Part shown: in pieces, positions 314 to 58,297 of the stretch
How positions within the stretch are numbered: the first letter of the stretch is position 1
Layout: every line of letters starts with the position of its first letter
From: an uncultured Methanosarcinales archaeon
Lineage (GTDB): Archaea > Nanobdellota > Nanobdellia > Woesearchaeales > UBA583
Length of the DNA stretch: 64,000 bases
NCBI GenBank assembly: GCA_964621065.1
Contig: CAZULG010000001.1
Location: 78,803-142,802 of the forward strand
Reading direction: 5' to 3'
Made by a program: the position numbers and the translations under genes
The notes under the pieces: generated by a model
What the model was told of the DNA's origin: nothing
Databases searched by the model: none
Seen by the model: only the letters and a program-made list of their open reading frames with translations

Positions 314-3300
314 TTATTTCATCTCTACTTTAAATTCTCCTTCTTCAATAACAATGTTTTCAGTGTTTGTTACATTTCGCAAATCTTGCAAATTATTCTC
401 AATAAATGTTTGAAGTTGCTTATTTGCATAAATTTTCAACTCTTCTAGTGGTTCTTTCATTGAAATTTGTTGCTCTGCTTTGTATTTTCTCACGTCTTTT
501 AAAATTTGTGTGAAGAAAAAATATTGTTCCTCATCTGCTTTAGCGAGTAATTGTTCATTAACTTGCGGATATTGAATTGTGTGGGTTGATTCTTCTTGTT
601 CATATTCTTTGAAGAATCGTTGATAGACACTCTCTGTGATAAATGGCATAATTGGAGCAAGTCCTTTTACACTTTCAAATAAAACTAGATAGAGTGTTTT
701 TTGAGCTGCTTTGTAATTCTCTTGTTTTTGCCATAACCGTTGTTTTACAATTTCTAAATAATTATCTGCAACTTCTGACATAAAAAATGCATTCCATACA
801 GATTTTGCTTTTGCATAGTCATATTTCTCAAACGCTTCATTTGATTCTTTAATTGTGTGTTGCATAAGTGATATAACTGCTCTATCGACTCCTGTGAGTT
901 CCTCAAGATTTATCTTTTTATCATCATTTGAAAAATCATCAAGAAGCATACTTGCAAATTTCACAGAATTATACATTTTATTAGCAACTCCATATCCTGT
1001 TTTCACTTCTTTTTCTTGAAATGGTGAGTCATATCCTAATTTATTAGACGCAGCTGCAAAACGCAGCGCATCGTTTGAGAATTGAGATACAATATCTTGA
1101 GGATCAATTCCGTTCTCCTTACTCTTACTCATTTTAGAACCATCAGGAGCTAAAACCCATCCTGAAATTGCAACATTATCAAATGGGTTTTTCTCATAAA
1201 TCAAGTTATTCTTAGCCATTGAATAAAATAACCAGAAATTTATGATATCATGTCCTTGTGGTCTCAAATCCATAGGAAATAGGGGATTAGTATTTACAAT
1301 TTGTTTTTTTCGAACAAATATAATATCTTCATCAGTTCCTTTGGTTTTTCTTGCTTTATCAAACACATCCTTTGGAATTTTTAAATGAGCATTCTCAACA
1401 TTATCCATCACGTACACATTTTCTTCGTCAAACCCTGAAATAATAACATAGTGAAATGAATTTGTATCATCTCCTTTGATAGTTCCCCAATGAACATTTA
1501 AACATGCTACCACATCTTTATTAATCTTGTTTAAAATTTCATTCAATTCAATAGATTTCTCAAAACATTGAGAAGTTGAACTCTCATTAAGCTCTGAAAT
1601 TGCCTCCTCAACTTCTTTTTTATCAATGTCAAAATCAGCAGTATTATTTTTGAAAAATTCTAATTCTTTTAACGATTCATCTACACCTAAATGTGTTGTA
1701 TAAAAATTTACATATAATCCTTTACTGCTCAAATATTGAGCAAGAACTGGTGTCCAAATTCCATATCCTTCATAATTCAATTCTTTTAAGACTTCATCAT
1801 ACTCTTTATTAATTCCAAAATATTGTAAAACACTTTGAATTGAAGAAGCTCCACAATCATTTTTATCTTGTTGTTTATGAAGAGGAATATCAAGTTTTAG
1901 CTCATTTCGTTTAACTTGATCTTCTACTAAATTCAAAGCAAGCTGAGGTGATGATGCTGATGTGAACCATGTGTCAAACACATCTTCTTCTCCTTTGTAA
2001 TCTTTTGGACTAAATCCTTCTTCACATAACTCAGCTGGAATTGGAGTCGAAGTCGGGTCAAGTGGAAGCATATCAGGAGTTGGATAAATAGTTGCATTTG
2101 TTTTTGTGTTAATCCACGCTGGGATTGGAACTCCAAAGTGTCTTTGTCTTGAAAATCCCCAGTCCCAATTCAATCCTTTAATCCAATTCTCAAGTCGTGT
2201 TTTCATAAACTCAGGCGTCCATTTAAAGGCATTTGCAAATTCAAAAAACATCTCCTTTTTATCTAGATATTTTACAAACCACTGCTCACTTGCAATATAC
2301 TCAACTGGAACACCCGAGCGCTCCCCTACATTTACAATTTGAGTAATATTCTCTTGCCCAATTAATGCACCAATTTCTTTGAGTTTTCTCATTGCAGCAA
2401 ATCGCCCTTCTTCACTTGCAATCAACCCATTAAACTCCTCTCCGCACAATTCATTTAATGTTCCGTCTCTATTCATAATCTCATAAATTTTCATTCCCGG
2501 ATGTCGTTTAATATATTCAATATCTTCAAGTCCACCAAAAGAGCAAAAGTATGCACTTCCTGTTCCTAAATCTGCTTTAATTGATTGGTCATGAGTAATT
2601 TCAATTTCTCGATTGATAAGAGGGATAATAACTCGCTCACCAATTATATTTTCTCCTTTGAGTGTTTCGATGATTTCATACTGTTCAATTCCAAGTTTAG
2701 AGAGTTTTTCTTCATATGTTTGAGCACCAAATATCCAAAATTCTTCTTGTCCTTTCACATTTACCTTGAGTTTTACGTATTCTCCACTATCTTCTACACT
2801 AAATCCATGACACGCAAAAATCATCTCAGGCCTTGTAGTTGCGTAAATAATGTAAGTGTGGTCAGTTCCTACAACCTTTGCTTTAATGTAGTTCATCTTA
2901 GACTTTACTTCTTTATCTTCTAATTCAGCTTGTGCAATTGTTGTTTGAAACACCCTATCCCACGGGATTGGACCTTTTCTTCGCTCAATTAAACCTTTGT
3001 TTACTAATTGTAGAAAACTCTCTTGAGACACTCGCTGAGAATATGGTGAAATGGTTGAATATCCTAGATTATCAAAATCACATGAAATTCCTAAATTTTT
3101 CCAATCTTGAACAAATTGTGGGCGAGTTTTTTCAATATAGTCCATTGTGATTTTTACTGCCTCTTCACGAGTCATTTTCCTCAAATCAACATTTTTTTCT
3201 TTTTGAACTATTTTCTCAGTTGCGAGTCCATTATCATCTGTTCCAAATGGATAAAATACTTCATGCCCGCTCATTCGCTTATAACGTGCAATAAAATCAG

Positions 3301-3496
3301 TTTGAGCGTATGAAAATGCATGTCCAATGTGCATTCTCCCCGACATTGTAGGAGGAGGAGTATCAATTGAAAAGACGACTTTAGAACTTTGAGGATCAAA
3401 TTTGTAAATTTCTTGTGTATTCCAAAAATTCATGATTTCTTGCTCTTGTTCTTTAGCATTGTACTTTTTTTCAAAATTGTCTGATAGTTTTGTCAT
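314..3496 (-). CDS. valS: valyl-tRNA synthetase carrying an inserted C39-like domain
   Basis: Class Ia motifs are present: PPPTMSGRMHIGH (HIGH), KMSKS, the TTRPEM editing-domain block, DTWFTSASSP and DLRPQGHDIINFW. The overall pattern is archaeal ValRS. At 1060 aa it is about 200 aa longer than usual. Confidence 0.9.
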   Translation of the reverse strand: MTKLSDNFEKKYNAKEQEQEIMNFWNTQEIYKFDPQSSKVVFSIDTPPPTMSGRMHIGHAFSYAQTDFIARYKRMSGHEVFYPFGTDDNGLATEKIVQKEKNVDLRKMTREEAVKITMDYIEKTRPQFVQDWKNLGISCDFDNLGYSTISPYSQRVSQESFLQLVNKGLIERRKGPIPWDRVFQTTIAQAELEDKEVKSKMNYIKAKVVGTDHTYIIYATTRPEMIFACHGFSVEDSGEYVKLKVNVKGQEEFWIFGAQTYEEKLSKLGIEQYEIIETLKGENIIGERVIIPLINREIEITHDQSIKADLGTGSAYFCSFGGLEDIEYIKRHPGMKIYEIMNRDGTLNELCGEEFNGLIASEEGRFAAMRKLKEIGALIGQENITQIVNVGERSGVPVEYIASEQWFVKYLDKKEMFFEFANAFKWTPEFMKTRLENWIKGLNWDWGFSRQRHFGVPIPAWINTKTNATIYPTPDMLPLDPTSTPIPAELCEEGFSPKDYKGEEDVFDTWFTSASSPQLALNLVEDQVKRNELKLDIPLHKQQDKNDCGASSIQSVLQYFGINKEYDEVLKELNYEGYGIWTPVLAQYLSSKGLYVNFYTTHLGVDESLKELEFFKNNTADFDIDKKEVEEAISELNESSTSQCFEKSIELNEILNKINKDVVACLNVHWGTIKGDDTNSFHYVIISGFDEENVYVMDNVENAHLKIPKDVFDKARKTKGTDEDIIFVRKKQIVNTNPLFPMDLRPQGHDIINFWLFYSMAKNNLIYEKNPFDNVAISGWVLAPDGSKMSKSKENGIDPQDIVSQFSNDALRFAAASNKLGYDSPFQEKEVKTGYGVANKMYNSVKFASMLLDDFSNDDKKINLEELTGVDRAVISLMQHTIKESNEAFEKYDYAKAKSVWNAFFMSEVADNYLEIVKQRLWQKQENYKAAQKTLYLVLFESVKGLAPIMPFITESVYQRFFKEYEQEESTHTIQYPQVNEQLLAKADEEQYFFFTQILKDVRKYKAEQQISMKEPLEELKIYANKQLQTFIENNLQDLRNVTNTENIVIEEGEFKVEMK
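1283..1933 (-). other. in-frame inserted module resembling a C39/C39_2 papain-fold cysteine peptidase
   Basis: Codons ~522-738 contain HKQQDKNDCGASSIQSVLQYFG (Gln-x5-Cys-Gly) and SFHYVIISGFDEENVYVMDN (His, then Asp 16 residues later). The module sits between two ValRS core blocks that are normally adjacent. Confidence 0.6.
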
Positions 3497-3582
3497 TTTT
3501 TATCTTTTCAACTGATACTACAAGTGTATCTAAATAAAAATAAGGAAGAGAATTTATATAATTTATGGTTGATTAAAAAAGA

Positions 3583-4455
3583 CTATTTTTTAGTTATAAC
3601 TCTTCTCCCAATTCTATACACACCATATATAACAGCAATTGGAATAATAAATCCTGCAATTGATACTACAAATCGAATTCCAAGTTCTAATGAGTCTAAA
3701 AATAACTTTAATCCATCTCTGAGACCTAAAAAGTCTAATTCATCAATTAATGATTGTTTTTCTTGTATTGTGAAATATACATCTGAATAACTCACATCTT
3801 CTTGTTGTCTTTGAATTTGCTCTTGTAAATATGCAATTGATTGTTCAAGTGAATCAATTCTATCTTGAATATTAATTTCTTCTTCAATTTCTAGATTATT
3901 TCGAGTAAGTATTTCTTCATAACGTTGAATTTGACTCTCATATCTCTCTAATCTTTCTTGTAAATCAATAACAACTCCTGTAACATCATTTGAATAGACA
4001 TTAATTGATTGTACTTCTCCTAACTCTTTGAGTGAGTTTAAAAATGTGTCTAATTGAGACGATTCTATTTTAAAATTATATGTTGAGCGGTAATAATTAT
4101 CATTATATTTACTCTCCTGCTCAGACATTACAATTACAGAGTATGATTCGACTAACGTGTCAATTTCTCTAATTGATTTGTGATATTCACTTGATTCAAT
4201 ATTCAAATTAGCATTCTTTGCAATCATTCGCTCATCTTCTTCAGGAGCAGCATTTGAACCACCACCAGGATAATATGAACTTCTCGCCATATCTTGCTGA
4301 GCATATCCTGCTTCATTTCTTGAACTTAAATCAGCAGAGCTCAATGAGTTCATTGAATTAGATATCATTCCAAGTGCTGAAAAAGCAACTAATACTAACA
4401 AAAGTCCTATAACATAGTTTTTCCAATATGTTTGTATATGATTTGTAATAGTCAT
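3583..4455 (-). CDS. DUF4349-like membrane-anchored coiled-coil protein
   Basis: N-terminal TM/signal segment, a central coiled coil (DLQERLERYESQIQRYEEIL) and a C-terminal TM pair. This architecture is typical of DUF4349. Confidence 0.5.
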   Translation of the reverse strand: MTITNHIQTYWKNYVIGLLLVLVAFSALGMISNSMNSLSSADLSSRNEAGYAQQDMARSSYYPGGGSNAAPEEDERMIAKNANLNIESSEYHKSIREIDTLVESYSVIVMSEQESKYNDNYYRSTYNFKIESSQLDTFLNSLKELGEVQSINVYSNDVTGVVIDLQERLERYESQIQRYEEILTRNNLEIEEEINIQDRIDSLEQSIAYLQEQIQRQQEDVSYSDVYFTIQEKQSLIDELDFLGLRDGLKLFLDSLELGIRFVVSIAGFIIPIAVIYGVYRIGRRVITKK

Positions 4456-4494
4456 AGATTATATATACTTAATTGATTTAAAAAGATTTGTTGT

Positions 4495-4935
4495 CTATTT
4501 CTCTAAATTCAACTTCATTTTTAATAAGGAATCTCCATTTTCATAGAATTTTTTTGTTTCTTCAATAACTTTAAATCCTACTTTTTTATATAAATTAACT
4601 GCTGGATTCTCAGACCACACGTCAAGAAGAATTGTATTAATATTCTGACTTTTACAATATTGAATTGCATATTCAAGTAATTTAGTCCCAACTCCTCTTC
4701 GTTGATAGTTTTTGTGAACTGACATTCCAATTTCACAAACATTGTTTTCAATTCTCAAAGAAATATATCCAACTGTCTTATTTTCATAATTATATAAAAA
4801 AACTAATTCACTCTCCAATAATTTTTTAGCAAATTCTTGCTCTTTTTCAAAACTATATTTTGACCAAATATAGCCGCTATTATATTCAATGTGTGCAATA
4901 TCTTTAAATTGAACAGAAGTAGCTTTAATTATCAT
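4495..4935 (-). CDS. GNAT family N-acetyltransferase
   Basis: Acetyl-CoA binding motif A (QRRGVGTKLLEYAI) in a 146-aa protein of GNAT size. Confidence 0.8.
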   Translation of the reverse strand: MIIKATSVQFKDIAHIEYNSGYIWSKYSFEKEQEFAKKLLESELVFLYNYENKTVGYISLRIENNVCEIGMSVHKNYQRRGVGTKLLEYAIQYCKSQNINTILLDVWSENPAVNLYKKVGFKVIEETKKFYENGDSLLKMKLNLEK

Positions 4936-5001
4936 AATTGTTAACTATAAACTATTATTTAAAAATAAATTGACTATAAAAAATAATAATAAAAAAATGA
5001 A

Positions 5002-5811
5002 TTAATTTAATTCTTCAAACTCTAATTTATCTCCTTCAATAATATTTCTATTTTTGATTACTTCAGGTGTTAATCGTACTTTTTGTAACTCTTTTAGTGC
5101 TTCAAATGCTGCGCTCATTAAATTAATTTTATTACTTGTAGTTCCAAATGTTTTACTCCAAACATCTTTAATACCAGCAAGTTCACACATTTTAGCAACT
5201 TCTTTTTCTGCAACAAGTCCTGTTCCTTTAGGAGCTGGAATGAGTTTTACTTTTACTGAACCACACTTTCCTTCAACTGAGAATGGAATTGTTGTTGGAT
5301 CTGAACCAAATGAACCCCATGAACCTGATCCTCTTCGAATTAAAATTAAATTTTGTTTTGCTTTTTTAATTGCTTTTTCACGAGCAGGTACATTTTCACG
5401 TGCTTTTCCAAATCCAAGTCCAACAACTCCGTTTTTATCACCTGATAAACACACCATTGAAAAACTCATCACTGAACCTTCTTTTGTCACTTTTTGAGTC
5501 GCTTTTGGTGGTTTTCTTTTTCCACCTCCAAATTTACCTTTTGCTTGACCAGTGTTTACAAATTCAGTTGTTAAATCAGGAACAAGATGATCTGTAATTT
5601 CACTCTCTAAAATTTTATGTCCCGAGCGAATAACATCTTTAATATCTGTATATTTTCCAGCTAGAACATCTTTTCCAACTTGAGTTTTAGGAGTCCAAAC
5701 TTTTTCTACTACTTCTTGTTCACGTCTAGGTCTTCTCTCTTGTCTTCTATCATCTCCTCGTCTAGGTCTTCTATCTCCACCTCTACCTTGTTGTCTTTGT
5801 TGTTCAACCAT
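5002..5811 (-). CDS. rps5: 30S ribosomal protein uS5 with Arg/Gly-rich N-terminal extension
   Basis: The conserved uS5 core is present (VVGLGFGKARENVPAREKAIKKAK, GTGLVAEKEVAKMCELAGIKD). It sits in the r-protein cluster, with GGAGGT upstream. Confidence 0.95.
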   Translation of the reverse strand: MVEQQRQQGRGGDRRPRRGDDRRQERRPRREQEVVEKVWTPKTQVGKDVLAGKYTDIKDVIRSGHKILESEITDHLVPDLTTEFVNTGQAKGKFGGGKRKPPKATQKVTKEGSVMSFSMVCLSGDKNGVVGLGFGKARENVPAREKAIKKAKQNLILIRRGSGSWGSFGSDPTTIPFSVEGKCGSVKVKLIPAPKGTGLVAEKEVAKMCELAGIKDVWSKTFGTTSNKINLMSAAFEALKELQKVRLTPEVIKNRNIIEGDKLEFEELN

Positions 5812-5813
5812 TT

Positions 5814-6332
5814 TTATTTTTTACCTCCTTCAATTGCTTTTTTTGTTTTTTCAATTACTGATTTTGCATCTTTTGAAGATAAATGTTCTCCATTAATTCT
5901 CTCTTCAGCTGGAAATACTCCTTCTCCAACACGAACATGTAATCCACTATCAATTAATCCTTTTACACTTGCAAATAATCTATTTCCATATTGAATTTTT
6001 TGTAAACCAAAATCAATAATTACATCATCTTTAATTCCTGCTTTAATTGCACGTGTACCTGCAAGTAACCCTGTTAAGTATGCAGCAGAGATATTTCCTG
6101 TGTGAAGTGTGTATCCAAGCCCAATTAGATCTTGAGCTCTTGCTGCTGTTGTAATATGATCTCCTTTCAAATTGTAAGATGCAATTTGTACAAGCATTCC
6201 ATTATTTGACTTTCGAATAATACATCGAGGTATTTTTGATTTAATTAATTTTAATCGTTGATGATAATTAGTCTTACCTTGAACTCTTCTATTATATCTA
6301 TATATTCTATTTTTTGAATCATTTCGAACCAT
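5814..6332 (-). CDS. rpl18: 50S ribosomal protein uL18
   Basis: L18P/L5e pattern (RRVQGKTNYHQRLKL, IIRKSNNGMLVQI). Operon position is between L19e and S5. Confidence 0.95.
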   Translation of the reverse strand: MVRNDSKNRIYRYNRRVQGKTNYHQRLKLIKSKIPRCIIRKSNNGMLVQIASYNLKGDHITTAARAQDLIGLGYTLHTGNISAAYLTGLLAGTRAIKAGIKDDVIIDFGLQKIQYGNRLFASVKGLIDSGLHVRVGEGVFPAEERINGEHLSSKDAKSVIEKTKKAIEGGKK

Positions 6333-11374: not shown

Positions 11375-11581
11375 TTTTTATTCTACAAAACTACTGCCTG
11401 GAATCGATTCCAAACAACTCTTCATTTCTGTAATGAGTGTAGTGTAGTTTAAAAAAACAAATATTGCTTTATAAAAGTAATGGAGAATAAGGCAAAATTT
11501 GCATTTATGAGAGCATTTTTGGAGTAGTTGACAATAATTAAATATTTAAAGAGAATAGTGTTAAATTAAATATTACAAATT

Positions 11582-11662
11582 GTGGGAGTAGCAAAGTGGT
11601 CAAATGCGACCGACTCAAGATCGGTTCCTTACGGTTCGAGGGTTCGAATCCCTTCTCCCACA
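11582..11662 (+). tRNA. tRNA-Leu (anticodon CAA), class II with long variable arm, no encoded CCA
   Basis: Hand-folded. The acceptor is GTGGGAG/CTCCCAC. The anticodon stem is ACCGA/TCGGT with loop CTCAAGA. The variable arm is TCCTTACGGTTC and the T arm is GAGGG-TTCGAAT-CCCTT, with discriminator A. Confidence 0.85.
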
Positions 11663-11670
11663 TTTTTTTT
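11663..11670 (+). terminator. oligo-T tract directly after tRNA-Leu
   Basis: Eight consecutive T immediately follow the discriminator base. Archaeal termination typically uses oligo-T. Confidence 0.4.
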
Positions 11671-36236: not shown

Positions 36237-36962
36237 ATGGCAAGCGCAGATAAATCATGCATAATTAGATATAAAAAAGCAGGAGTTGAAGTTGAAGCAT
36301 TAGTTGAATATAGAGAATTAGTTAATTATTTAGAGCAGAGTGAGAGTGAAAATTCCACTCAAGAACAAAACTCAATTTATGATGTGTTCGTAACACCCCA
36401 GTTATATTCAGACTCAAACAAAGGTCTTGAAGCTGATTATGATACAATTAAACAATTATTTGAAAAAATGAGTGAAGAAGAGATACTCATTGAAATTGCT
36501 CGCCATGGTGACGCTCAAATTCCAACAAGTTATATGAATGAGCTTCGAGAGAAAAAGAAAGAGCAAATTATTAATTATATTGCTTCTCAAACAATTAATC
36601 CACAAACAAAACAAAAATACTCACAATCATTAATTTCAAATGAAATAGAATCTCTAACATTTACAGTTCACCCCTACAAAGATCATATTAAACAAGCAGA
36701 AGATATATTTAAGGAGTTGAAGAAGAAAATTCCAATTAAATTTGATAATTCACTACTTATTATTCAAATTCCCTCTCAATACTCTGGAAAGTTAATAGGA
36801 ACAATACGAAAGTTTGGAACTATTGAAAAGCAATTTTATGATGAACTTGGAGTACTGCATCTTCATTTAAACATACCAACAAGTCGATTAGAAGAAGTTG
36901 AGACATTTGTTAAAAACGAAACCAACGGTAGTGGAAGTTATTATGTTCACAAAGATGAATAG
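36237..36962 (+). CDS. sdo1: ribosome maturation protein SBDS/Sdo1
   Basis: N-terminus IIRYKKAGVEVEALVEY and a three-domain length. A TATA box lies 20 nt upstream. Confidence 0.75.
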   Translation: MASADKSCIIRYKKAGVEVEALVEYRELVNYLEQSESENSTQEQNSIYDVFVTPQLYSDSNKGLEADYDTIKQLFEKMSEEEILIEIARHGDAQIPTSYMNELREKKKEQIINYIASQTINPQTKQKYSQSLISNEIESLTFTVHPYKDHIKQAEDIFKELKKKIPIKFDNSLLIIQIPSQYSGKLIGTIRKFGTIEKQFYDELGVLHLHLNIPTSRLEEVETFVKNETNGSGSYYVHKDE

Positions 36963-38656
36963 ATTATCTCAAGACCCCCTAGAAAGTGGAGATAATTAAA
37001 TTGAATTAATTCAATTCTACATTTTTTAGATAAATTTTCATAGTATTTCGGATAATCTCGTTTCATAATCTCAATACATGAATTAGAAAAATCTCCTTCT
37101 AAATACAGAGTTGTAATAATATTATCAAAATATATACAATCTTTTAAAAAATAATACAGCTCTTGCATAAAAAATGAAATTGTAGGTTTTAAATTATATA
37201 TTTCATATTCATTATTTAGAGCGTGAGTTATAATTTCTTGACTTGACATATATGTTGATGTGTCATAATAATATCTCTTCTCAAGTCCTGTGCTTGAGAT
37301 AATATCATCAAAAGAGATTTCTATCATTTGACAATTGTTTGTTTCTTCACGTTTTTCTTGTTTCAAAAACTCTAAATATTCATAATCATCAATTGATGCA
37401 ACTGTGTGTCCGCCTTCAGAATTATAGACGATATTTGAATTTGAAATATGTGCAATTCCAAGTCCTGTTCCTAAAATTACTAAAATTTCTAAAAATGAGT
37501 CTGAATTGAGATTTGAACTATTAATATGAGTTTGAATATTGTTTGCTCTTTGAGGGATTTTTTGGTTTTCAATATTATTGTAGTTCGTATTACTATCCTT
37601 CGTTTTTATATTTCGCTTTTGAGATTGAAGGCCGTATGCTGCGAGTTCAATGTCGTTGTAGAGTTTAACTTCTGCTCCGCTGTATTGCTCACAAATGTCA
37701 TGATAATTGAAATAGAGATTTTGATGAGTCATCTTAATACTATTATGATGATTCTCTCCTGCAATTGAGAGAATAATATATTGAAGAGGAATTGTTCCAA
37801 TAATTGATTTGAGTAATTGTTTTGAAGATGTGAAGGTTGACGTTTTGACTTTTGTAATATGTTGAGTTGAAAAATCTTCTATATCTCCTAAATAATATTT
37901 AGTATACGTGCCTCCAACATCACAAATTAAAATATTGAGCTTAGAATGTTTTGATTCATTAGTATTGTTATATTCATCGTGTTCTTTGATTTTTTCTTGT
38001 AGTTGAAGTACATTTCTCTCAATATTATCAGAGGCGTTGATGTATGAGCCAACATTAATTTGTGAAAATGGATATTTAATAATTGTTGAAATTGTCTTCT
38101 CACTCACTCCTCCATCAATACTTATATGTTTTATCCCAAATTTTTGCAAGATTGTTGCACTATTGAGTCTGTGTTCTAATAATTCTTGTCCTTGTTTTCC
38201 AGGATTCACTCCCATAATCATAATTTGGTGAAATAGTGATAATACTGGAAGTGTCGTTTCAATTTGTGTCGTTGGAGAAATTGCTAGTTGAAGTAATATT
38301 TGAGGATGATTGCTTTTAAACTCTTCTACAAAATGTTCTATTTCTTCACTTGATTCAAACGCTTCAAAGTGAATAATAATTGAGTGAATTTGAGAGTGAT
38401 ATGTGTGTAATACTTCTTCATAGTGAGTTGTTGAGCGTGACATAAAATGTATCTCGCAAGTGTGAGAGTTATTACTCAATTGACTTAGTAAAACATCTAA
38501 TTGGTGAACAGATATGTTGTTTTGTATGTGTTCAATAAAATCAGGTGTCATTATATCAATGTGAAAATACGAAAAATAGTTAGAGAGTTTATTGTATTGT
38601 TCATTCATCTCTTCAAAATGTTGTGAAAATAATGTTGGTACAATATTCATATACAA
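36947..38656 (-). CDS. fusion protein: ribulose-phosphate 3-epimerase-like barrel plus glucokinase (Glk family)
   Basis: The N-terminal half has HIDIMTPDF, IMIMGVNPGKQGQ and ISIDGGV (RPE-like). The C-terminal half has LICDVGGTYTK, LYNDIELAAYG, ILGTGLGIA and SEGGH (Glk-like). Confidence 0.65.
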   Translation of the reverse strand: MYMNIVPTLFSQHFEEMNEQYNKLSNYFSYFHIDIMTPDFIEHIQNNISVHQLDVLLSQLSNNSHTCEIHFMSRSTTHYEEVLHTYHSQIHSIIIHFEAFESSEEIEHFVEEFKSNHPQILLQLAISPTTQIETTLPVLSLFHQIMIMGVNPGKQGQELLEHRLNSATILQKFGIKHISIDGGVSEKTISTIIKYPFSQINVGSYINASDNIERNVLQLQEKIKEHDEYNNTNESKHSKLNILICDVGGTYTKYYLGDIEDFSTQHITKVKTSTFTSSKQLLKSIIGTIPLQYIILSIAGENHHNSIKMTHQNLYFNYHDICEQYSGAEVKLYNDIELAAYGLQSQKRNIKTKDSNTNYNNIENQKIPQRANNIQTHINSSNLNSDSFLEILVILGTGLGIAHISNSNIVYNSEGGHTVASIDDYEYLEFLKQEKREETNNCQMIEISFDDIISSTGLEKRYYYDTSTYMSSQEIITHALNNEYEIYNLKPTISFFMQELYYFLKDCIYFDNIITTLYLEGDFSNSCIEIMKRDYPKYYENLSKKCRIELIQFNYLHFLGGLEIIYSSL

Positions 38657-44086: not shown

Positions 44087-44161
44087 GGGGTTGTAGTGTA
44101 GCATGGCCTATCATCGGGCGTTTGGGACGCTTGGACCGCGGTTCAAATCCGCGCAACCCCG
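44087..44161 (+). tRNA. tRNA-Pro (anticodon TGG)
   Basis: Hand-folded. The acceptor is GGGGTTG/CAACCCC. The anticodon stem is GGGCG/CGCTT with loop TTTGGGA. The T arm is CGCGG-TTCAAAT-CCGCG. Confidence 0.85.
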
Positions 44162-44311
44162 CTTACTCAATTTAAACATATTCTAATATATAATTATTAA
44201 ATGAATAAAGTCTTATTATATTATTAAAAAAATAGTAAAATATTAAATCAAAAATTTTATTTCTAATTATCCACATAATAGTAATAGTGTTAAACAAAGA
44301 ATATATTTTTA

Positions 44312-55195: not shown

Positions 55196-58045
55196 TTATT
55201 CATACCTACTCCTTAATTCACTATCTACTTCTTTTTGTGCTAGAAACCAACTTCTAGATTTTGACTTTTTCTTCAAATAAGAATCCCAATCAATATTCAG
55301 TCTTTGAGGAGTTTTTCTCTCAATTTCTTGTTGCTCTTGCTCAGTATTATCTTTACTATCAGTCATATTTTCCTGTTGAGTTTTTTTCTCTAAATTATTA
55401 GAGTTTCTTGAACACACACTATTTTTATGGCTACTAGTCTTAGTGTTATCATTCTCATCGTCTTGAGATGAATACTTATACGTTGTTTGAATTCCTCGTC
55501 CTCCAAAAATATCTCTTGAATTTGAATTGGATGAAGTGCGCTGCTTTGACTGCTCAGTATTGTCTTGTTTAATTGTATTTTCATTATTTTCTTTCTTACT
55601 TGATAAAAATGGAAATATGGAGCTGAGTGAGAAACCAGTGAAACCACTAGATGTATTAGACTTGTATTTTGTAGTATTATATTCTGGCTCTGGATTTTGT
55701 GTAAATTTCTTATGAGTTCTTTTAGACGCAGTTTTATTAGTTACATAAACAGGATTTTGTGAGAATATATCTCTTCGACTTTGTTGCCCAGATAAATCAT
55801 TGAGTTTATCTTGATCATATTGGCTTTTTTGTTTATATTGTTGTTCTAGTCTCTTTCTTTTTCTTTCTAATTCTTGTTCTTTTTTCTCCATATCTTTTTT
55901 ATGTTTATCTTCAATTCGCTTATGGATTTCTTTATCAAATGAGACTGTATTTTTTGATGTTGAGTAGGGGAATTTTAAAAAGGAGTTTCCTTTTCGTTTT
56001 TGAATGAGTTGATTATACGCTCTATTTTTATCATGCCAATTTTTCAACAAATCAATTTGAGAATACAAAAATAAAAATACTGCTAACAATGCAAGTATTA
56101 CAAAAATAATCCAAAACCATTGAAGTGGAGAATTTGAAGTACTAGTTGTTTCACTATTGTTCTCACCCAAAATTGAACTTGATAATGTCTCATTTGTTGA
56201 AGTCTCTTGAGCTTTAACTTCTTCACTAGATTGATTTTCGTTTTGATTTTGTAGAGAACGCTCTTCAACTGATGCTTGAGTGTTTTGATTTTGAGGAGAT
56301 GATTGAATTGTTATCTCTTCTCTTCTCGAGTTAGAGTAGTCATCTTCTAGAAATAAATTCATTGTAAATTGCTCTTCAAGTCTAGTTATGTCAAATTCAA
56401 TAACATCACTGTTTGTCTCAATGCTGTATGTTGAATCCTCTCTTTTAGTTATTTGGGCTCCTTGAACATTTGAAATTTCAACCATTGAATCATTGAATTC
56501 TACATCATTTTTAGACTCAAATTGTATTGAACCTCTCAAATTGTCTTCGCTTTGAATAATTATTCTCTCTTGAGTATCATCTTCACTCTCTTGTGTGTAA
56601 TAATCAAATGATATTGTAACTTTTCGTGGAGACAACTCAAATAGTTTACTTATTTGTCTATTCCCTGCTCTATCTATTGCCTCTAGCTCATATTCATATT
56701 CTTCTTGATATTCAACATCTTCATCAACATATGTTGAACCAGATTCATCTAGTCGAATTGTTTGAGAATTTTTCAACAAATTAAGTCTTGTAGTATCACT
56801 ATCTGCTTTATATAAAATTTTAATATGACCATTTTCATCCGCTTCAACATCAAAGCGAGTAATACTAGGAGGCGTTGTATCAACCACTACTTCAAATTCT
56901 TCTTGTGAAATTGAATTATTATTTAAACACTCTACTATAATCGTGTACGTATTATCACCAATATTGTTTGATGAAATATCTAAAACAAAATTATCTGAGT
57001 TGGTTCTCTCAAATTCTCTATTGTTTGTATTAAACCCACTTTTTAACATACAAGAAGTTGCTTGAGGAGAAGTTACAATTAGCTCATCAGATATATATTC
57101 TTCACTCTCAATTGTTGGCATCTCAAAGTTTGAAAAGTTATATTCCTGTGTGTTGTTGAATATATCTTCTACTTCAAATCGTATTTGATCAGGCATAGTA
57201 TTGAGTTGTTGAATAATTGTATCTTGTGTTTGATTATTTGTATATGTTTGAGCATGTTCAATATTACCAATAAACATCCTCCAACGCTTAATTCCGCTCA
57301 TATCTGTAATTGTAAAATTCGTAGAATATGTGTCTTGATAAGAACGTTTAATTGTAAAATTTTCAATTTGTGGCGCAAAAATATCTTCAACTCTAATATG
57401 TCTTGTAACTAGTTTCTCATTACCTGCTCTATCACGAGATAATACTTCAATTGTATAATTTCCTGTTTTTGAAAGTGGCAAACTAGCATTAAATGTTGAA
57501 GTGTTGTAAGTTTGGGAAAATTCAACATTTTGTGAAGAGTTTTGTGACTCATAAAGTACTTTTAACGAAGAAGAGTCAACATATAAATTATCCGTGCTAT
57601 TTACATCAATGAGTAATTGTTTTGATTTTGAATGAATTGAGTAATTGAGTTGGATTGATGGTGAAATGAAATCAATATAAATTGTTTGAATATCATTTGT
57701 ATCATTGTTTTGAGAAAAGTCAAAAGAAACTGCACTCATAAATGATGTATTTGTTGATTGAATATAATTATTTAATGTATCTTGAACACAGTATTGTGAC
57801 TCAATTTGAGTAATCGTGCAGTTTTGAGGCACAAATGATTGAGTAAATGTAGTGTTGTCAATTGTATAAGTGAGTGAAACATTGTTTGAATTATTCGTTG
57901 CAATGATATAATCTAAATTAGACAAAGAGAAATATTCTTGATTCTCAAAATCTTCATTAAATATTTGAAATGATGAAAATACACAAGGAATAAAAATGAA
58001 TAAAGATAGCGCAAATATAATATATCGAAGAGAGAAAGAGTTCAT
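55196..58045 (-). CDS. large type I membrane protein: sequon-rich extracellular Ig-like modules, one TM, long K/Q/S-rich cytoplasmic tail
   Basis: A signal peptide is followed by about 640 aa of beta-rich extracellular region, a TM (WFWIIFVILALLAVFLFLY) and about 290 aa of low-complexity basic tail. Its stop lies 2 nt from the downstream gene start. Confidence 0.6.
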   Translation of the reverse strand: MNSFSLRYIIFALSLFIFIPCVFSSFQIFNEDFENQEYFSLSNLDYIIATNNSNNVSLTYTIDNTTFTQSFVPQNCTITQIESQYCVQDTLNNYIQSTNTSFMSAVSFDFSQNNDTNDIQTIYIDFISPSIQLNYSIHSKSKQLLIDVNSTDNLYVDSSSLKVLYESQNSSQNVEFSQTYNTSTFNASLPLSKTGNYTIEVLSRDRAGNEKLVTRHIRVEDIFAPQIENFTIKRSYQDTYSTNFTITDMSGIKRWRMFIGNIEHAQTYTNNQTQDTIIQQLNTMPDQIRFEVEDIFNNTQEYNFSNFEMPTIESEEYISDELIVTSPQATSCMLKSGFNTNNREFERTNSDNFVLDISSNNIGDNTYTIIVECLNNNSISQEEFEVVVDTTPPSITRFDVEADENGHIKILYKADSDTTRLNLLKNSQTIRLDESGSTYVDEDVEYQEEYEYELEAIDRAGNRQISKLFELSPRKVTISFDYYTQESEDDTQERIIIQSEDNLRGSIQFESKNDVEFNDSMVEISNVQGAQITKREDSTYSIETNSDVIEFDITRLEEQFTMNLFLEDDYSNSRREEITIQSSPQNQNTQASVEERSLQNQNENQSSEEVKAQETSTNETLSSSILGENNSETTSTSNSPLQWFWIIFVILALLAVFLFLYSQIDLLKNWHDKNRAYNQLIQKRKGNSFLKFPYSTSKNTVSFDKEIHKRIEDKHKKDMEKKEQELERKRKRLEQQYKQKSQYDQDKLNDLSGQQSRRDIFSQNPVYVTNKTASKRTHKKFTQNPEPEYNTTKYKSNTSSGFTGFSLSSIFPFLSSKKENNENTIKQDNTEQSKQRTSSNSNSRDIFGGRGIQTTYKYSSQDDENDNTKTSSHKNSVCSRNSNNLEKKTQQENMTDSKDNTEQEQQEIERKTPQRLNIDWDSYLKKKSKSRSWFLAQKEVDSELRSRYE

Positions 58046-58158
58046 ATTAGTTTGTGAATATTTATGTTTAAAAAAATTTGCATACTATTTACAAAGTGAC
58101 AATTAAGAGAATAATATTTCACAAAGATTTAAAAACAAACATTTGATTATTAAAGTAT

Positions 58159-58233
58159 CCTCCGGTAGTGTAGTCCGGCCAATCATGCAGCCCTCTCACG
58201 GCTGTGACCCGGGTTCGAATCCCGGCCGGAGGG
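58159..58233 (+). tRNA. tRNA-Glu (anticodon CTC)
   Basis: Hand-folded. The acceptor is CCTCCGG/CCGGAGG. The anticodon stem is CAGCC/GGCTG with loop CTCTCAC. The T arm is CCGGG-TTCGAAT-CCCGG. Confidence 0.85.
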
Positions 58234-58297
58234 TTTAATTTAATTATTATATAGAATTTAATGTGTATAAATCAAATTTACTAAATTTGAAAGCAAG

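Follow-up and report, generated by a model that had tools for sequence, protein, structure and literature searches.

The window analyzed here is a 64,000-nucleotide (nt) stretch of contig CAZULG010000001.1, from an uncultured archaeon of the Woesearchaeales (assembly GCA_964621065.1), and its first large open reading frame (ORF), located at 314 to 3496 on the minus strand, encodes a valyl-tRNA synthetase (ValRS) with an embedded papain-fold domain. An earlier note, made from the letters of the window, had proposed that an otherwise intact ValRS permanently houses a papain-fold thiol hydrolase that is catalytically plausible, and profiles, a fold model, residue alignments and the comparison with orthologues all argue for this proposal. 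We reasoned that a gene has been captured in a permissive loop, that the ValRS is still working and that the tethered thiol hydrolase may carry out the usual reaction of its family; we give this reading a probability of about 0.6. A papain-fold hydrolase within a ValRS appears to be undescribed, and it was seen in one genome only.

The host gene, valS, is a complete ORF of 1,060 amino acids (aa) plus a stop codon, and all features described within it are likewise on the minus strand. The NCBIfam equivalog for valine--tRNA ligase (NF009687) scored 784.7 bits on this ORF against a cut-off of 738, and its match is split into three stretches because the insert interrupts the ValRS. Pfam recognized tRNA-synt_1, in two stretches, and Anticodon_1 at residues 871 to 1018. 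The HIGH-type motif MHIGH (residues 55 to 59; 3320 to 3334) and the KMSKS loop (residues 788 to 792; 1121 to 1135), by which the earlier note had identified the enzyme, are indeed present and are invariant among ValRS orthologues. Moreover, all residues invariant across 55 ValRS orthologues are retained, including the blocks TTRPE (220 to 224) and GTG (311 to 313) of the editing domain. The N-terminal part of the enzyme (residues 1 to 526; 1919 to 3496), supported by invariant residues, model confidence and substitution rates, comprises the first Rossmann half, the CP1 editing domain, CP2/3 and the DTWFTS helix. The C-terminal part (residues 740 to 1060; 314 to 1279), supported by Pfam, model confidence and substitution rates, runs from the strand FPMDLRPQ, leading to GHD, through KMSKS to the anticodon-binding domain.

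The reference for codon-level comparison was the nearest insert-less orthologue (P0003, encoded at 3719 to 6271 of locus L001). Against this orthologue, the ValRS parts showed a nonsynonymous divergence (dN) of 0.098 and a synonymous divergence (dS) of 0.896, i.e., a ratio of about 0.11. The corresponding values were 0.074 and 0.834 for the N-terminal part and 0.129 and 1.01 for the C-terminal part, and the 60 codons on each side of the insert yielded dN/dS values similar to those of the whole ValRS. A full-length AlphaFold2 (AF2) model was built on a multiple sequence alignment of ValRS only, and it matched the ValRS of Thermus thermophilus (1GAX) with a target-normalized template modeling (TM) score of 0.82. 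Predicted local distance difference test (pLDDT) scores stayed at about 90 or above as far as residue ~520 and returned to about 90 from residue ~740 onward. They were low in the insert region because the alignment has no depth there, and this model is uninformative on the packing of the domain. From the dN/dS ratio of 0.11 and the intact predicted fold, we infer that the ValRS continues as the valine-tRNA ligase of the cell.

The boundaries of the insert were derived from the closest relatives of the host. In a collection of 5.8 billion proteins, the nearest ValRS sequences are insert-less proteins of 850 to 860 aa that share 88 to 89% identity with the ORF over the best local alignment, and they come from metagenome-assembled genomes (MAGs) of Nanoarchaeota and Woesearchaeota. 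Codon-level alignment with the reference orthologue paired LNLVED-GMKKH-FPMDL with LNLVED-[213 aa]-FPMDL, which places the insert exactly at residues 527 to 739 (213 aa; 1280 to 1918). The earlier note had given 1283 to 1933, a span that is essentially right and is corrected by this alignment. It had also stated that about 200 extra aa separate the blocks DVFDTWFTSAS (from residue 505) and FPMDLRPQGH (from residue 740), that a short linker joins these blocks elsewhere, and that the reading frame is continuous, all of which agrees with our data: the insert takes the place of the 5-residue linker GMKKH of the nearest orthologues, the ValRS resumes exactly, and both junctions are in frame. In 113 related ValRS sequences, DTWFTS and RPQGHD are separated by a median of 31 residues (minimum, 28), and by no more than about 33 in 112 of them; the only other expanded loop is that of P0029, with 229 residues. 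Since the loop is of nearly constant length in the relatives, the extra length observed here is a genuine and rare feature.

Free-standing proteins of 200 to 210 aa, P0001 and P0002 among them, can be aligned with the insert from end to end. The position of Met1 in the family corresponds to Leu533, and the last residues of the family fall at about residue 735. This end-to-end alignment indicates that an entire gene, lacking only its start and stop codons, has been fused on both sides via short linkers, which measure about 7 aa on the N-terminal side and about 10 aa on the C-terminal side (junction sequences QVKRNELK and KKQIVNTNPL). The insert has a GC content of 0.283 and a GC content at third codon positions (GC3) of 0.155, and its GC3 is lower than that of any host-gene window of the same size (0.197 to 0.286). 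The claim that its composition matches the host gene did not hold in this respect, but its GC3 is typical of the other genes in the window (0.19 ± 0.037). Such a composition is consistent with the insert having come from an ordinary gene in a genome of similar AT richness.

We then weighed whether the fusion is an artefact or a non-protein element, such as a chimeric assembly, an intein, an archaeal bulge-helix-bulge (BHB) intron or a transposon-like element. That only one genome has the fusion would suit such an origin, but the junctions are exact and in frame with a loss of only 5 ValRS residues, and the identical 1,060-aa protein is recorded in NCBI as well as in Logan, on 2 contigs of up to 301,785 nt, together with its neighbors. 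The two assemblies agree on the fusion; they were possibly built from the same reads. An assembly chimera was rejected on account of the exact, in-frame junctions and the identical proteins, and a 40-mer across the junction was absent from the GTDB representative genomes. An intein was rejected as well, in keeping with the absence of splice motifs reported in the earlier note: there is no Hint match in Pfam and the junction residues are wrong for an intein. The insert starts with Gln527, and the candidate window for the N-terminal junction, LNLVEDQVKRNELK, contains no Cys, Ser or Thr; at the C-terminal junction there is no His-Asn, the insert ending in ...NTNPL followed by Phe740. Thus, the element is like the inteins of essential archaeal genes in being an in-frame insertion of about 200 aa in a conserved region, but it differs from them in having neither a Hint fold nor splice residues and in being homologous to a cellular hydrolase family.

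Co-folding of the junctions yielded -15.1 kcal/mol, versus -16.4 ± 3.1 kcal/mol for shuffled sequences, and a BHB intron was rejected. So was a transposon, since neither target-site duplications nor terminal inverted repeats were found at nt 1280 and 1918. An 11-nt direct repeat, GATGTGTTTGA, does occur at 1359 to 1369 and 1974 to 1984, where it encodes DVFD in the ValRS and in the family motif alike; it lies 56 to 79 nt from the junctions and is therefore not a target-site duplication. An origin from a defence system or a phage was also rejected, as there were no PADLOC, PHROG or viral-contig relatives. We give hardly any credence to an artefact or a non-protein element.

The nature of the insert was then analyzed. 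In the 1,060-aa ORF, three related papain-like Pfam families match between residues ~535 and 728. For the insert alone, PF09778 (Guanylate_cyc_2) scored 74.6 bits against a cut-off of 28.1, with insert residues 17 to 207 covering positions 2 to 212 of the 212-position profile; PF13529 (Peptidase_C39_2) scored 43.5 bits against 24, and PF03412 (Peptidase_C39) scored 41.3 bits against 22. These matches are far beyond chance by their profile scores, and the sequence is best matched as a full-length member of PF09778 (GUCD1-like), a cytoplasmic family of about 200 aa that is a papain-like relative of C39. The earlier note had called the insert a C39 or C39_2 module. Both of those profiles do match above their cut-offs, but the best family is PF09778 and not the bacteriocin-processing C39 of ABC transporters. 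PF09778, which includes human GUCD1 and Arabidopsis GC1, has no established protease function, its biochemical function is uncharacterized, and its closest families are DUF3335 and C39 (PMC10318531).

An AF2 model of the insert, built with 25 homologues, reached a pLDDT of 91.0 and a predicted TM score of 0.86. When this model was compared with the PDB by Foldseek, matches with a probability of 1.0 were obtained for the pseudomurein endoisopeptidase PeiR, the C39-like peptidase 3erv, PCAT1, ComA, LahT and phytochelatin synthase. Against the C39 domains of PCAT1, ComA and LahT, the target-normalized TM scores were 0.67 to 0.78 at a sequence identity of 12 to 16%. Thus, the two checks that the earlier note had suggested, a profile scan and an AlphaFold model searched with Foldseek, gave Pfam scores above the cut-offs and fold neighbors of the C39-like type.

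Four residues named in that note as a putative catalytic set, Gln542, Cys548, His682 and Asp698, could be read directly from the codons at the positions given. Gln542 (1871 to 1873), the predicted oxyanion-hole residue of a Q-x5-C motif, is Q in 97 of 99 family members. Cys548 (1853 to 1855), the predicted nucleophile, is C in all 99 and stands at the N terminus of a helix (residue 33 of the model, helix 33 to 44), and His682 (1451 to 1453), the predicted general base, is H in all 99 and stands at the start of a strand (residue 167, strand 166 to 174). The predicted third member of the triad, Asp698 (1403 to 1405; residue 183), lies at the end of the next strand, at His+16; at this position the family has N in 83 members, D in 7 and Q in 6. 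Gln542 and Cys548 align to 'pQvdqmDCG' of ComA and 'mQmealeCG' of LahT, and His682 and Asp698 align to the H...D of both proteins at an equal spacing of +16, the Asp of LahT standing in 'yinDP'. The C39-like residue set and spacing claimed before are therefore borne out by alignment to the catalytic residues of ComA and LahT, and the AF2 model places Cys, His and Asp in a predicted papain-like arrangement. In addition, the family signature F712-x2-ARK-x2-GTDED724 (1325 to 1363), a helix and loop before the last strand, is fully kept in the alignments to the family.

The insert is thus like the archaeal members of PF09778 of about 200 aa in its length, in its match to the profile above the gathering score over the whole domain, in its Gln, Cys, His and Asp (the commoner residue being Asn) and in its signature. 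It is unlike the other members examined, all of them free-standing, in being embedded and divergent. With the C39 domains of ComA, PCAT1 and LahT (PF03412) it has in common a papain-like core, Gln-x5-Cys and His-x15-Asp, the Gln, Cys, His and Asp being at homologous positions by alignment and in the predicted model. It differs from them by an extra helical sub-domain of about 50 residues, which is predicted to follow the Cys helix and precede the His strand. In contrast to the C39 of bacteriocin exporters, the domain is cytoplasmic and archaeal, with no ABC transporter, membrane context or double-glycine substrate; it resides in a ValRS, and the NCBIfam match to a peptidase-ABC transporter was only 14 bits against a cut-off of 500.

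A papain-fold, peptidase-like domain held by flexible linkers could be a self-processing protease that cuts its own linkers, generating a two-chain, split ValRS or releasing itself. Split class I aminoacyl-tRNA synthetases (aaRS) occur in other organisms, e.g., the LeuRS of Aquifex, and this precedent lends the idea some plausibility. However, neither Gly-Gly nor a recognizable C39 cleavage motif is present at the junctions, and the data show no sign of cleavage. We regard self-processing as very improbable.

The family of the insert was surveyed among free-standing proteins. A profile search of 1.84 billion representatives yielded 2548 relatives at E <= 1e-3, of which 68 were at <= 1e-30, and the best 150 of the 2548 were all 72 to 473 aa long. 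All proteins returned by word-indexed searches with the insert were short, and one carried the name 'peptidase C39 family protein [archaeon]'. Family loci were retrieved from GTDB (40 loci, one genome per species) and from JGI metagenomes (80 loci); each is a free-standing ORF of about 200 aa, and none of the 120 lies inside a ValRS. The GTDB loci come almost entirely from Nanoarchaeota, Woesearchaeota and Pacearchaeota MAGs. Members of the family conserve KQ..CG, GH(F/Y), VYVH(N/D) and the C-terminal FxKARKxxGTDED, and one type bears an N-terminal extension of about 150 aa without a Pfam match (P0275 of 350 aa, encoded at 3554 to 4606 of L040, and L052).

Neighbors of the free-standing genes are mostly housekeeping genes and are inconsistent between loci, as judged from 105 non-identical loci, 74 to 77 of which have at least 800 nt of flank. 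The gene order Mre11, Rad50, C39-like gene, PsmA (proteasome alpha) and aCPSF1 was found in a subset of genomes (L005, L024, L038, L116 and others), with Rad50 directly upstream on the same strand in 7 of the 105 loci; the synteny of the free-standing C39-like gene is weak and lineage restricted. A HisRS-like gene is a neighbor in 3 of 41 family loci, and Sua5/YrdC is one at a single locus (L004), where the two genes overlap by 4 nt. No ABC transporter occurs among the recurrent neighbor clusters of the free-standing genes. In the window itself, a gene for a GNAT acetyltransferase of 146 aa (4495 to 4935, minus strand) is found two genes away from valS. Fusions to GNAT domains are common in DUF3335, which is the nearest family to PF09778 (PMC10318531), and the proximity of the GNAT gene to valS is probably a coincidence.

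In the scenario that we favor, a whole stand-alone papain-fold (PF09778/C39-like) gene, of a kind typical of Nanoarchaeota-type DPANN archaea, has been captured in frame. The start codon (Met to Leu533) and the stop codon of this gene were lost, such that one polypeptide carries both units. The landing site is a short, length-constrained surface loop between the helix following DTWFTS and the strand leading to GHD. There the domain is predicted to fold independently and to keep its Gln/Cys/His/Asp site. It would probably still perform the thiol-dependent hydrolase or transferase reaction of its family, as a tethered and co-expressed passenger, and it probably plays no part in aminoacylation or proofreading.

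Several observations weigh against this scenario. The fusion was found in one genome only, so selection for it is unproven, and the triad is a predicted one, from alignments and the secondary-structure elements of the model. Among the free-standing relatives, proteasome alpha is the next gene downstream, on the same strand, at only 7 of the 105 loci, of which 74 have 800 nt or more of downstream flank. The insert keeps 30 of 56 core-conserved columns in a comparison set gathered with the search pattern GHF..P, having FH for GH and MD for HN, and no member is more than 38% identical to it, its median identity being the lowest of 100 sequences.

Some of these data would suit a functionless passenger, i.e., an accidental insertion of one gene into another that is tolerated, confers no benefit and carries an inactive or decaying hydrolase. 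Consistent with this idea, the collections searched contain the fusion in a single genome, the closest ValRS orthologues are insert-less, many core-conserved positions around the His and the Asp are altered, and the GC3 of the insert has not been ameliorated to that of the host gene. A hidden Markov model of the family built on the core set also scored the insert at 150 bits versus 230 to 333 bits for free-standing members. This core set had been gathered with the GHF..P pattern and is biased, however. In an unbiased representative set, free-standing members scored 90 to 309 bits, a range that includes the insert, and a nearly identical His motif occurs in the free-standing P0128 (FFHYVVISGYD versus SFHYVIISGFD), which makes the odd motif a trait of a subclade rather than decay. 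The view of the insert as a degenerate outlier was therefore withdrawn, and we read the sequence as deriving from a divergent subclade of the family that is not demonstrably decayed.

Further evidence speaks against a functionless passenger. The insert has stayed open for 213 codons in a gene of about 28% GC, it retains Gln, Cys, His and Asp together with all nine signature residues, and its sequence folds confidently in AF2; the host dS relative to the nearest lineage lacking the insert, about 0.9, leaves room for a long residence. The retained residues, the open frame and the predicted fold favor, but do not prove, a still-functional domain. We therefore regard a functionless passenger as unlikely, yet as an alternative to be taken seriously. 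Should the fusion be no more than an accident tolerated in a single lineage, it would be of modest significance.

The ValRS enzymes of this clade were surveyed for other captured domains. The 120 best ValRS matches contained 4 other internal inserts and 3 C-terminal fusions. In P0029, a HAD domain (residues 512 to 686; ~510 to 690) occupies the same DTWFTS-to-RPQGHD loop as the papain-fold insert. P0006, whose ValRS is 76% identical to that of the window over the best local alignment and 71% over the whole alignment, has a HAD-like domain within CP1 (residues ~280 to 450), and P0012 has a NUDIX domain at the same CP1 site. P0074 bears a histidine-phosphatase domain (His_Phos_1) in the CP2/3 zone and a C-terminal prephenate dehydratase, and the latter is also fused C-terminally in P0014 and P0024. 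The ORF at 2522 to 5689 of L003 is listed with the domain-bearing ValRS of the Nanoarchaeota/Woesearchaeota clade. These alignments and domain matches showed that ValRS genes of the clade independently took up HAD, NUDIX and histidine-phosphatase domains in loops. The HAD inserts of P0006 and P0029 share 33% identity (E 1e-22) as well as the motifs KIxxIVFDVDGVLIxS, NxSLPxK and LF(V/I)DDxIxHI; from their sequences, it seems that one HAD subfamily was captured by ValRS twice or moved between sites. A HAD gene adjoining the free-standing P0001 (in L002) was considered as a link to these inserts and rejected, being only a distant relative. P0029, P0006, P0012 and P0074 are thus like the ValRS of the window in having whole enzyme domains inserted in loops, but the domains differ, the CP1 and CP2/3 sites differ, and none is of the papain fold.

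The place of the insert in the ValRS fold bears on its possible function. In the full-length model, the insert is located between the helices at residues 509 to 521 and the strand at 742 to 747, the C-terminal end of which bears the conserved G748-H749-D750, and the insertion site aligns to the GWPEETEDLKAFYP loop of 1GAX. Rossmann folds bind their substrates at the C-terminal edge of the parallel sheet, and for this reason a loop that runs from helix to strand would lie on the opposite edge. From this principle and the model, the insertion loop is predicted to occupy the sheet edge that lies across from the adenylate and active site.

The predicted location is relevant to the alternative that the thiol domain is integrated with ValRS chemistry and acts on Val-AMP, Val-tRNA or mis-acylated tRNA, in proofreading or aminoacyl-thioester transfer. 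An editing-like activity, self-processing and a moonlighting peptidase had been offered as speculative roles in the earlier note. The predicted nucleophile set is intact and is joined covalently to the catalytic domain; the fold neighbors include papain-fold acyltransferases and transpeptidases (phytochelatin synthase and CtaG); and related ValRS have repeatedly captured hydrolases (HAD twice, NUDIX and histidine phosphatase), which could hint at the clearing of by-products. On the other side, the insertion lies at the N-terminal end of strand 742 to 747, opposite the edge of the adenylate site, and the ValRS retains its own CP1 editing domain, two points that render an editing role unlikely. 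Moreover, the family is otherwise free-standing with no consistent linkage to aaRS genes, and orthologues of 88% identity manage without the insert. We consider such an integration quite improbable. It is also improbable, in our estimate, that the Cys548 enzyme is functionally coupled to the ValRS (in valine thioester transfer or extra proofreading) or processes protein at the translation machinery. If coupling did prove true, the repeated capture of hydrolases would reflect selection for modules that clear by-products or errors on aaRS, and the fusion would provide a first functional handle on the uncharacterized GUCD1/PF09778 family.

The capture of a stand-alone gene in a permissive loop, which we favor, has its best parallel in the CAAD domain of cyanobacteria. 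There, the stand-alone Curt1 was captured repeatedly and independently inside ValRS, IleRS, LeuRS, GluRS and others, at surface positions away from the tRNA, and the catalytic parameters of aminoacylation were unchanged (PMC4893482). As in these CAAD-type aaRS (PMC4893482), a stand-alone family of the lineage has been captured at a surface loop and the host motifs are intact. In contrast to CAAD, which is a membrane protein, the captured unit is an enzyme-like papain-fold domain inside the Rossmann fold, in an archaeon and in one genome; the recurrence across species seen for CAAD has no counterpart here, as there was no second ValRS with a papain-fold insert in the collections searched. The literature searched contained nothing describing a peptidase-like domain in a ValRS or this ValRS architecture, and the AARS Online table, a non-exhaustive list of domains common to at least two aaRS families, gives no peptidase domain for ValRS. 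Within these sources, the view that the architecture had not been catalogued before holds.

Domain insertion in the catalytic core of an essential aaRS is rare, and the present case is a clean natural example in which the host is apparently intact. Together with the other captures, it singles out the ValRS of Nanoarchaeota-type DPANN archaea as an enzyme that has repeatedly taken in stand-alone hydrolase genes, and it pinpoints at least three permissive ValRS loops, one of them used twice, which is useful for aaRS engineering and for the study of gene fusion in streamlined genomes. It also offers a PF09778 member that is physically tied to the translation apparatus, a tractable construct for studying the chemistry of the family.

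A few other features of the window were recorded. The ORF at 5002 to 5811 on the minus strand, which we took by eye for ribosomal protein uS5, has an N-terminal extension of about 40 residues rich in Arg, Gln, Gly and Asp (MVEQQRQQGRGGDRRPRRGDDRRQERRPRREQE...), reminiscent of the extension of eukaryotic uS5. A 949-aa ORF at 55196 to 58045 (minus strand) had no Pfam match at E <= 1e-5. At 36947 to 38656 on the minus strand, a 569-aa ORF is an end-to-end fusion of ribulose-phosphate 3-epimerase (residues 5 to 206) and glucokinase (residues 243 to 533). ARAGORN called a tRNA-Pro(TGG) at 44087 to 44162 on the plus strand, for which there was no Rfam tRNA match at the gathering score; ARAGORN and Rfam both called the tRNAs Leu-CAA (11581 to 11663) and Glu-CTC (58158 to 58234).

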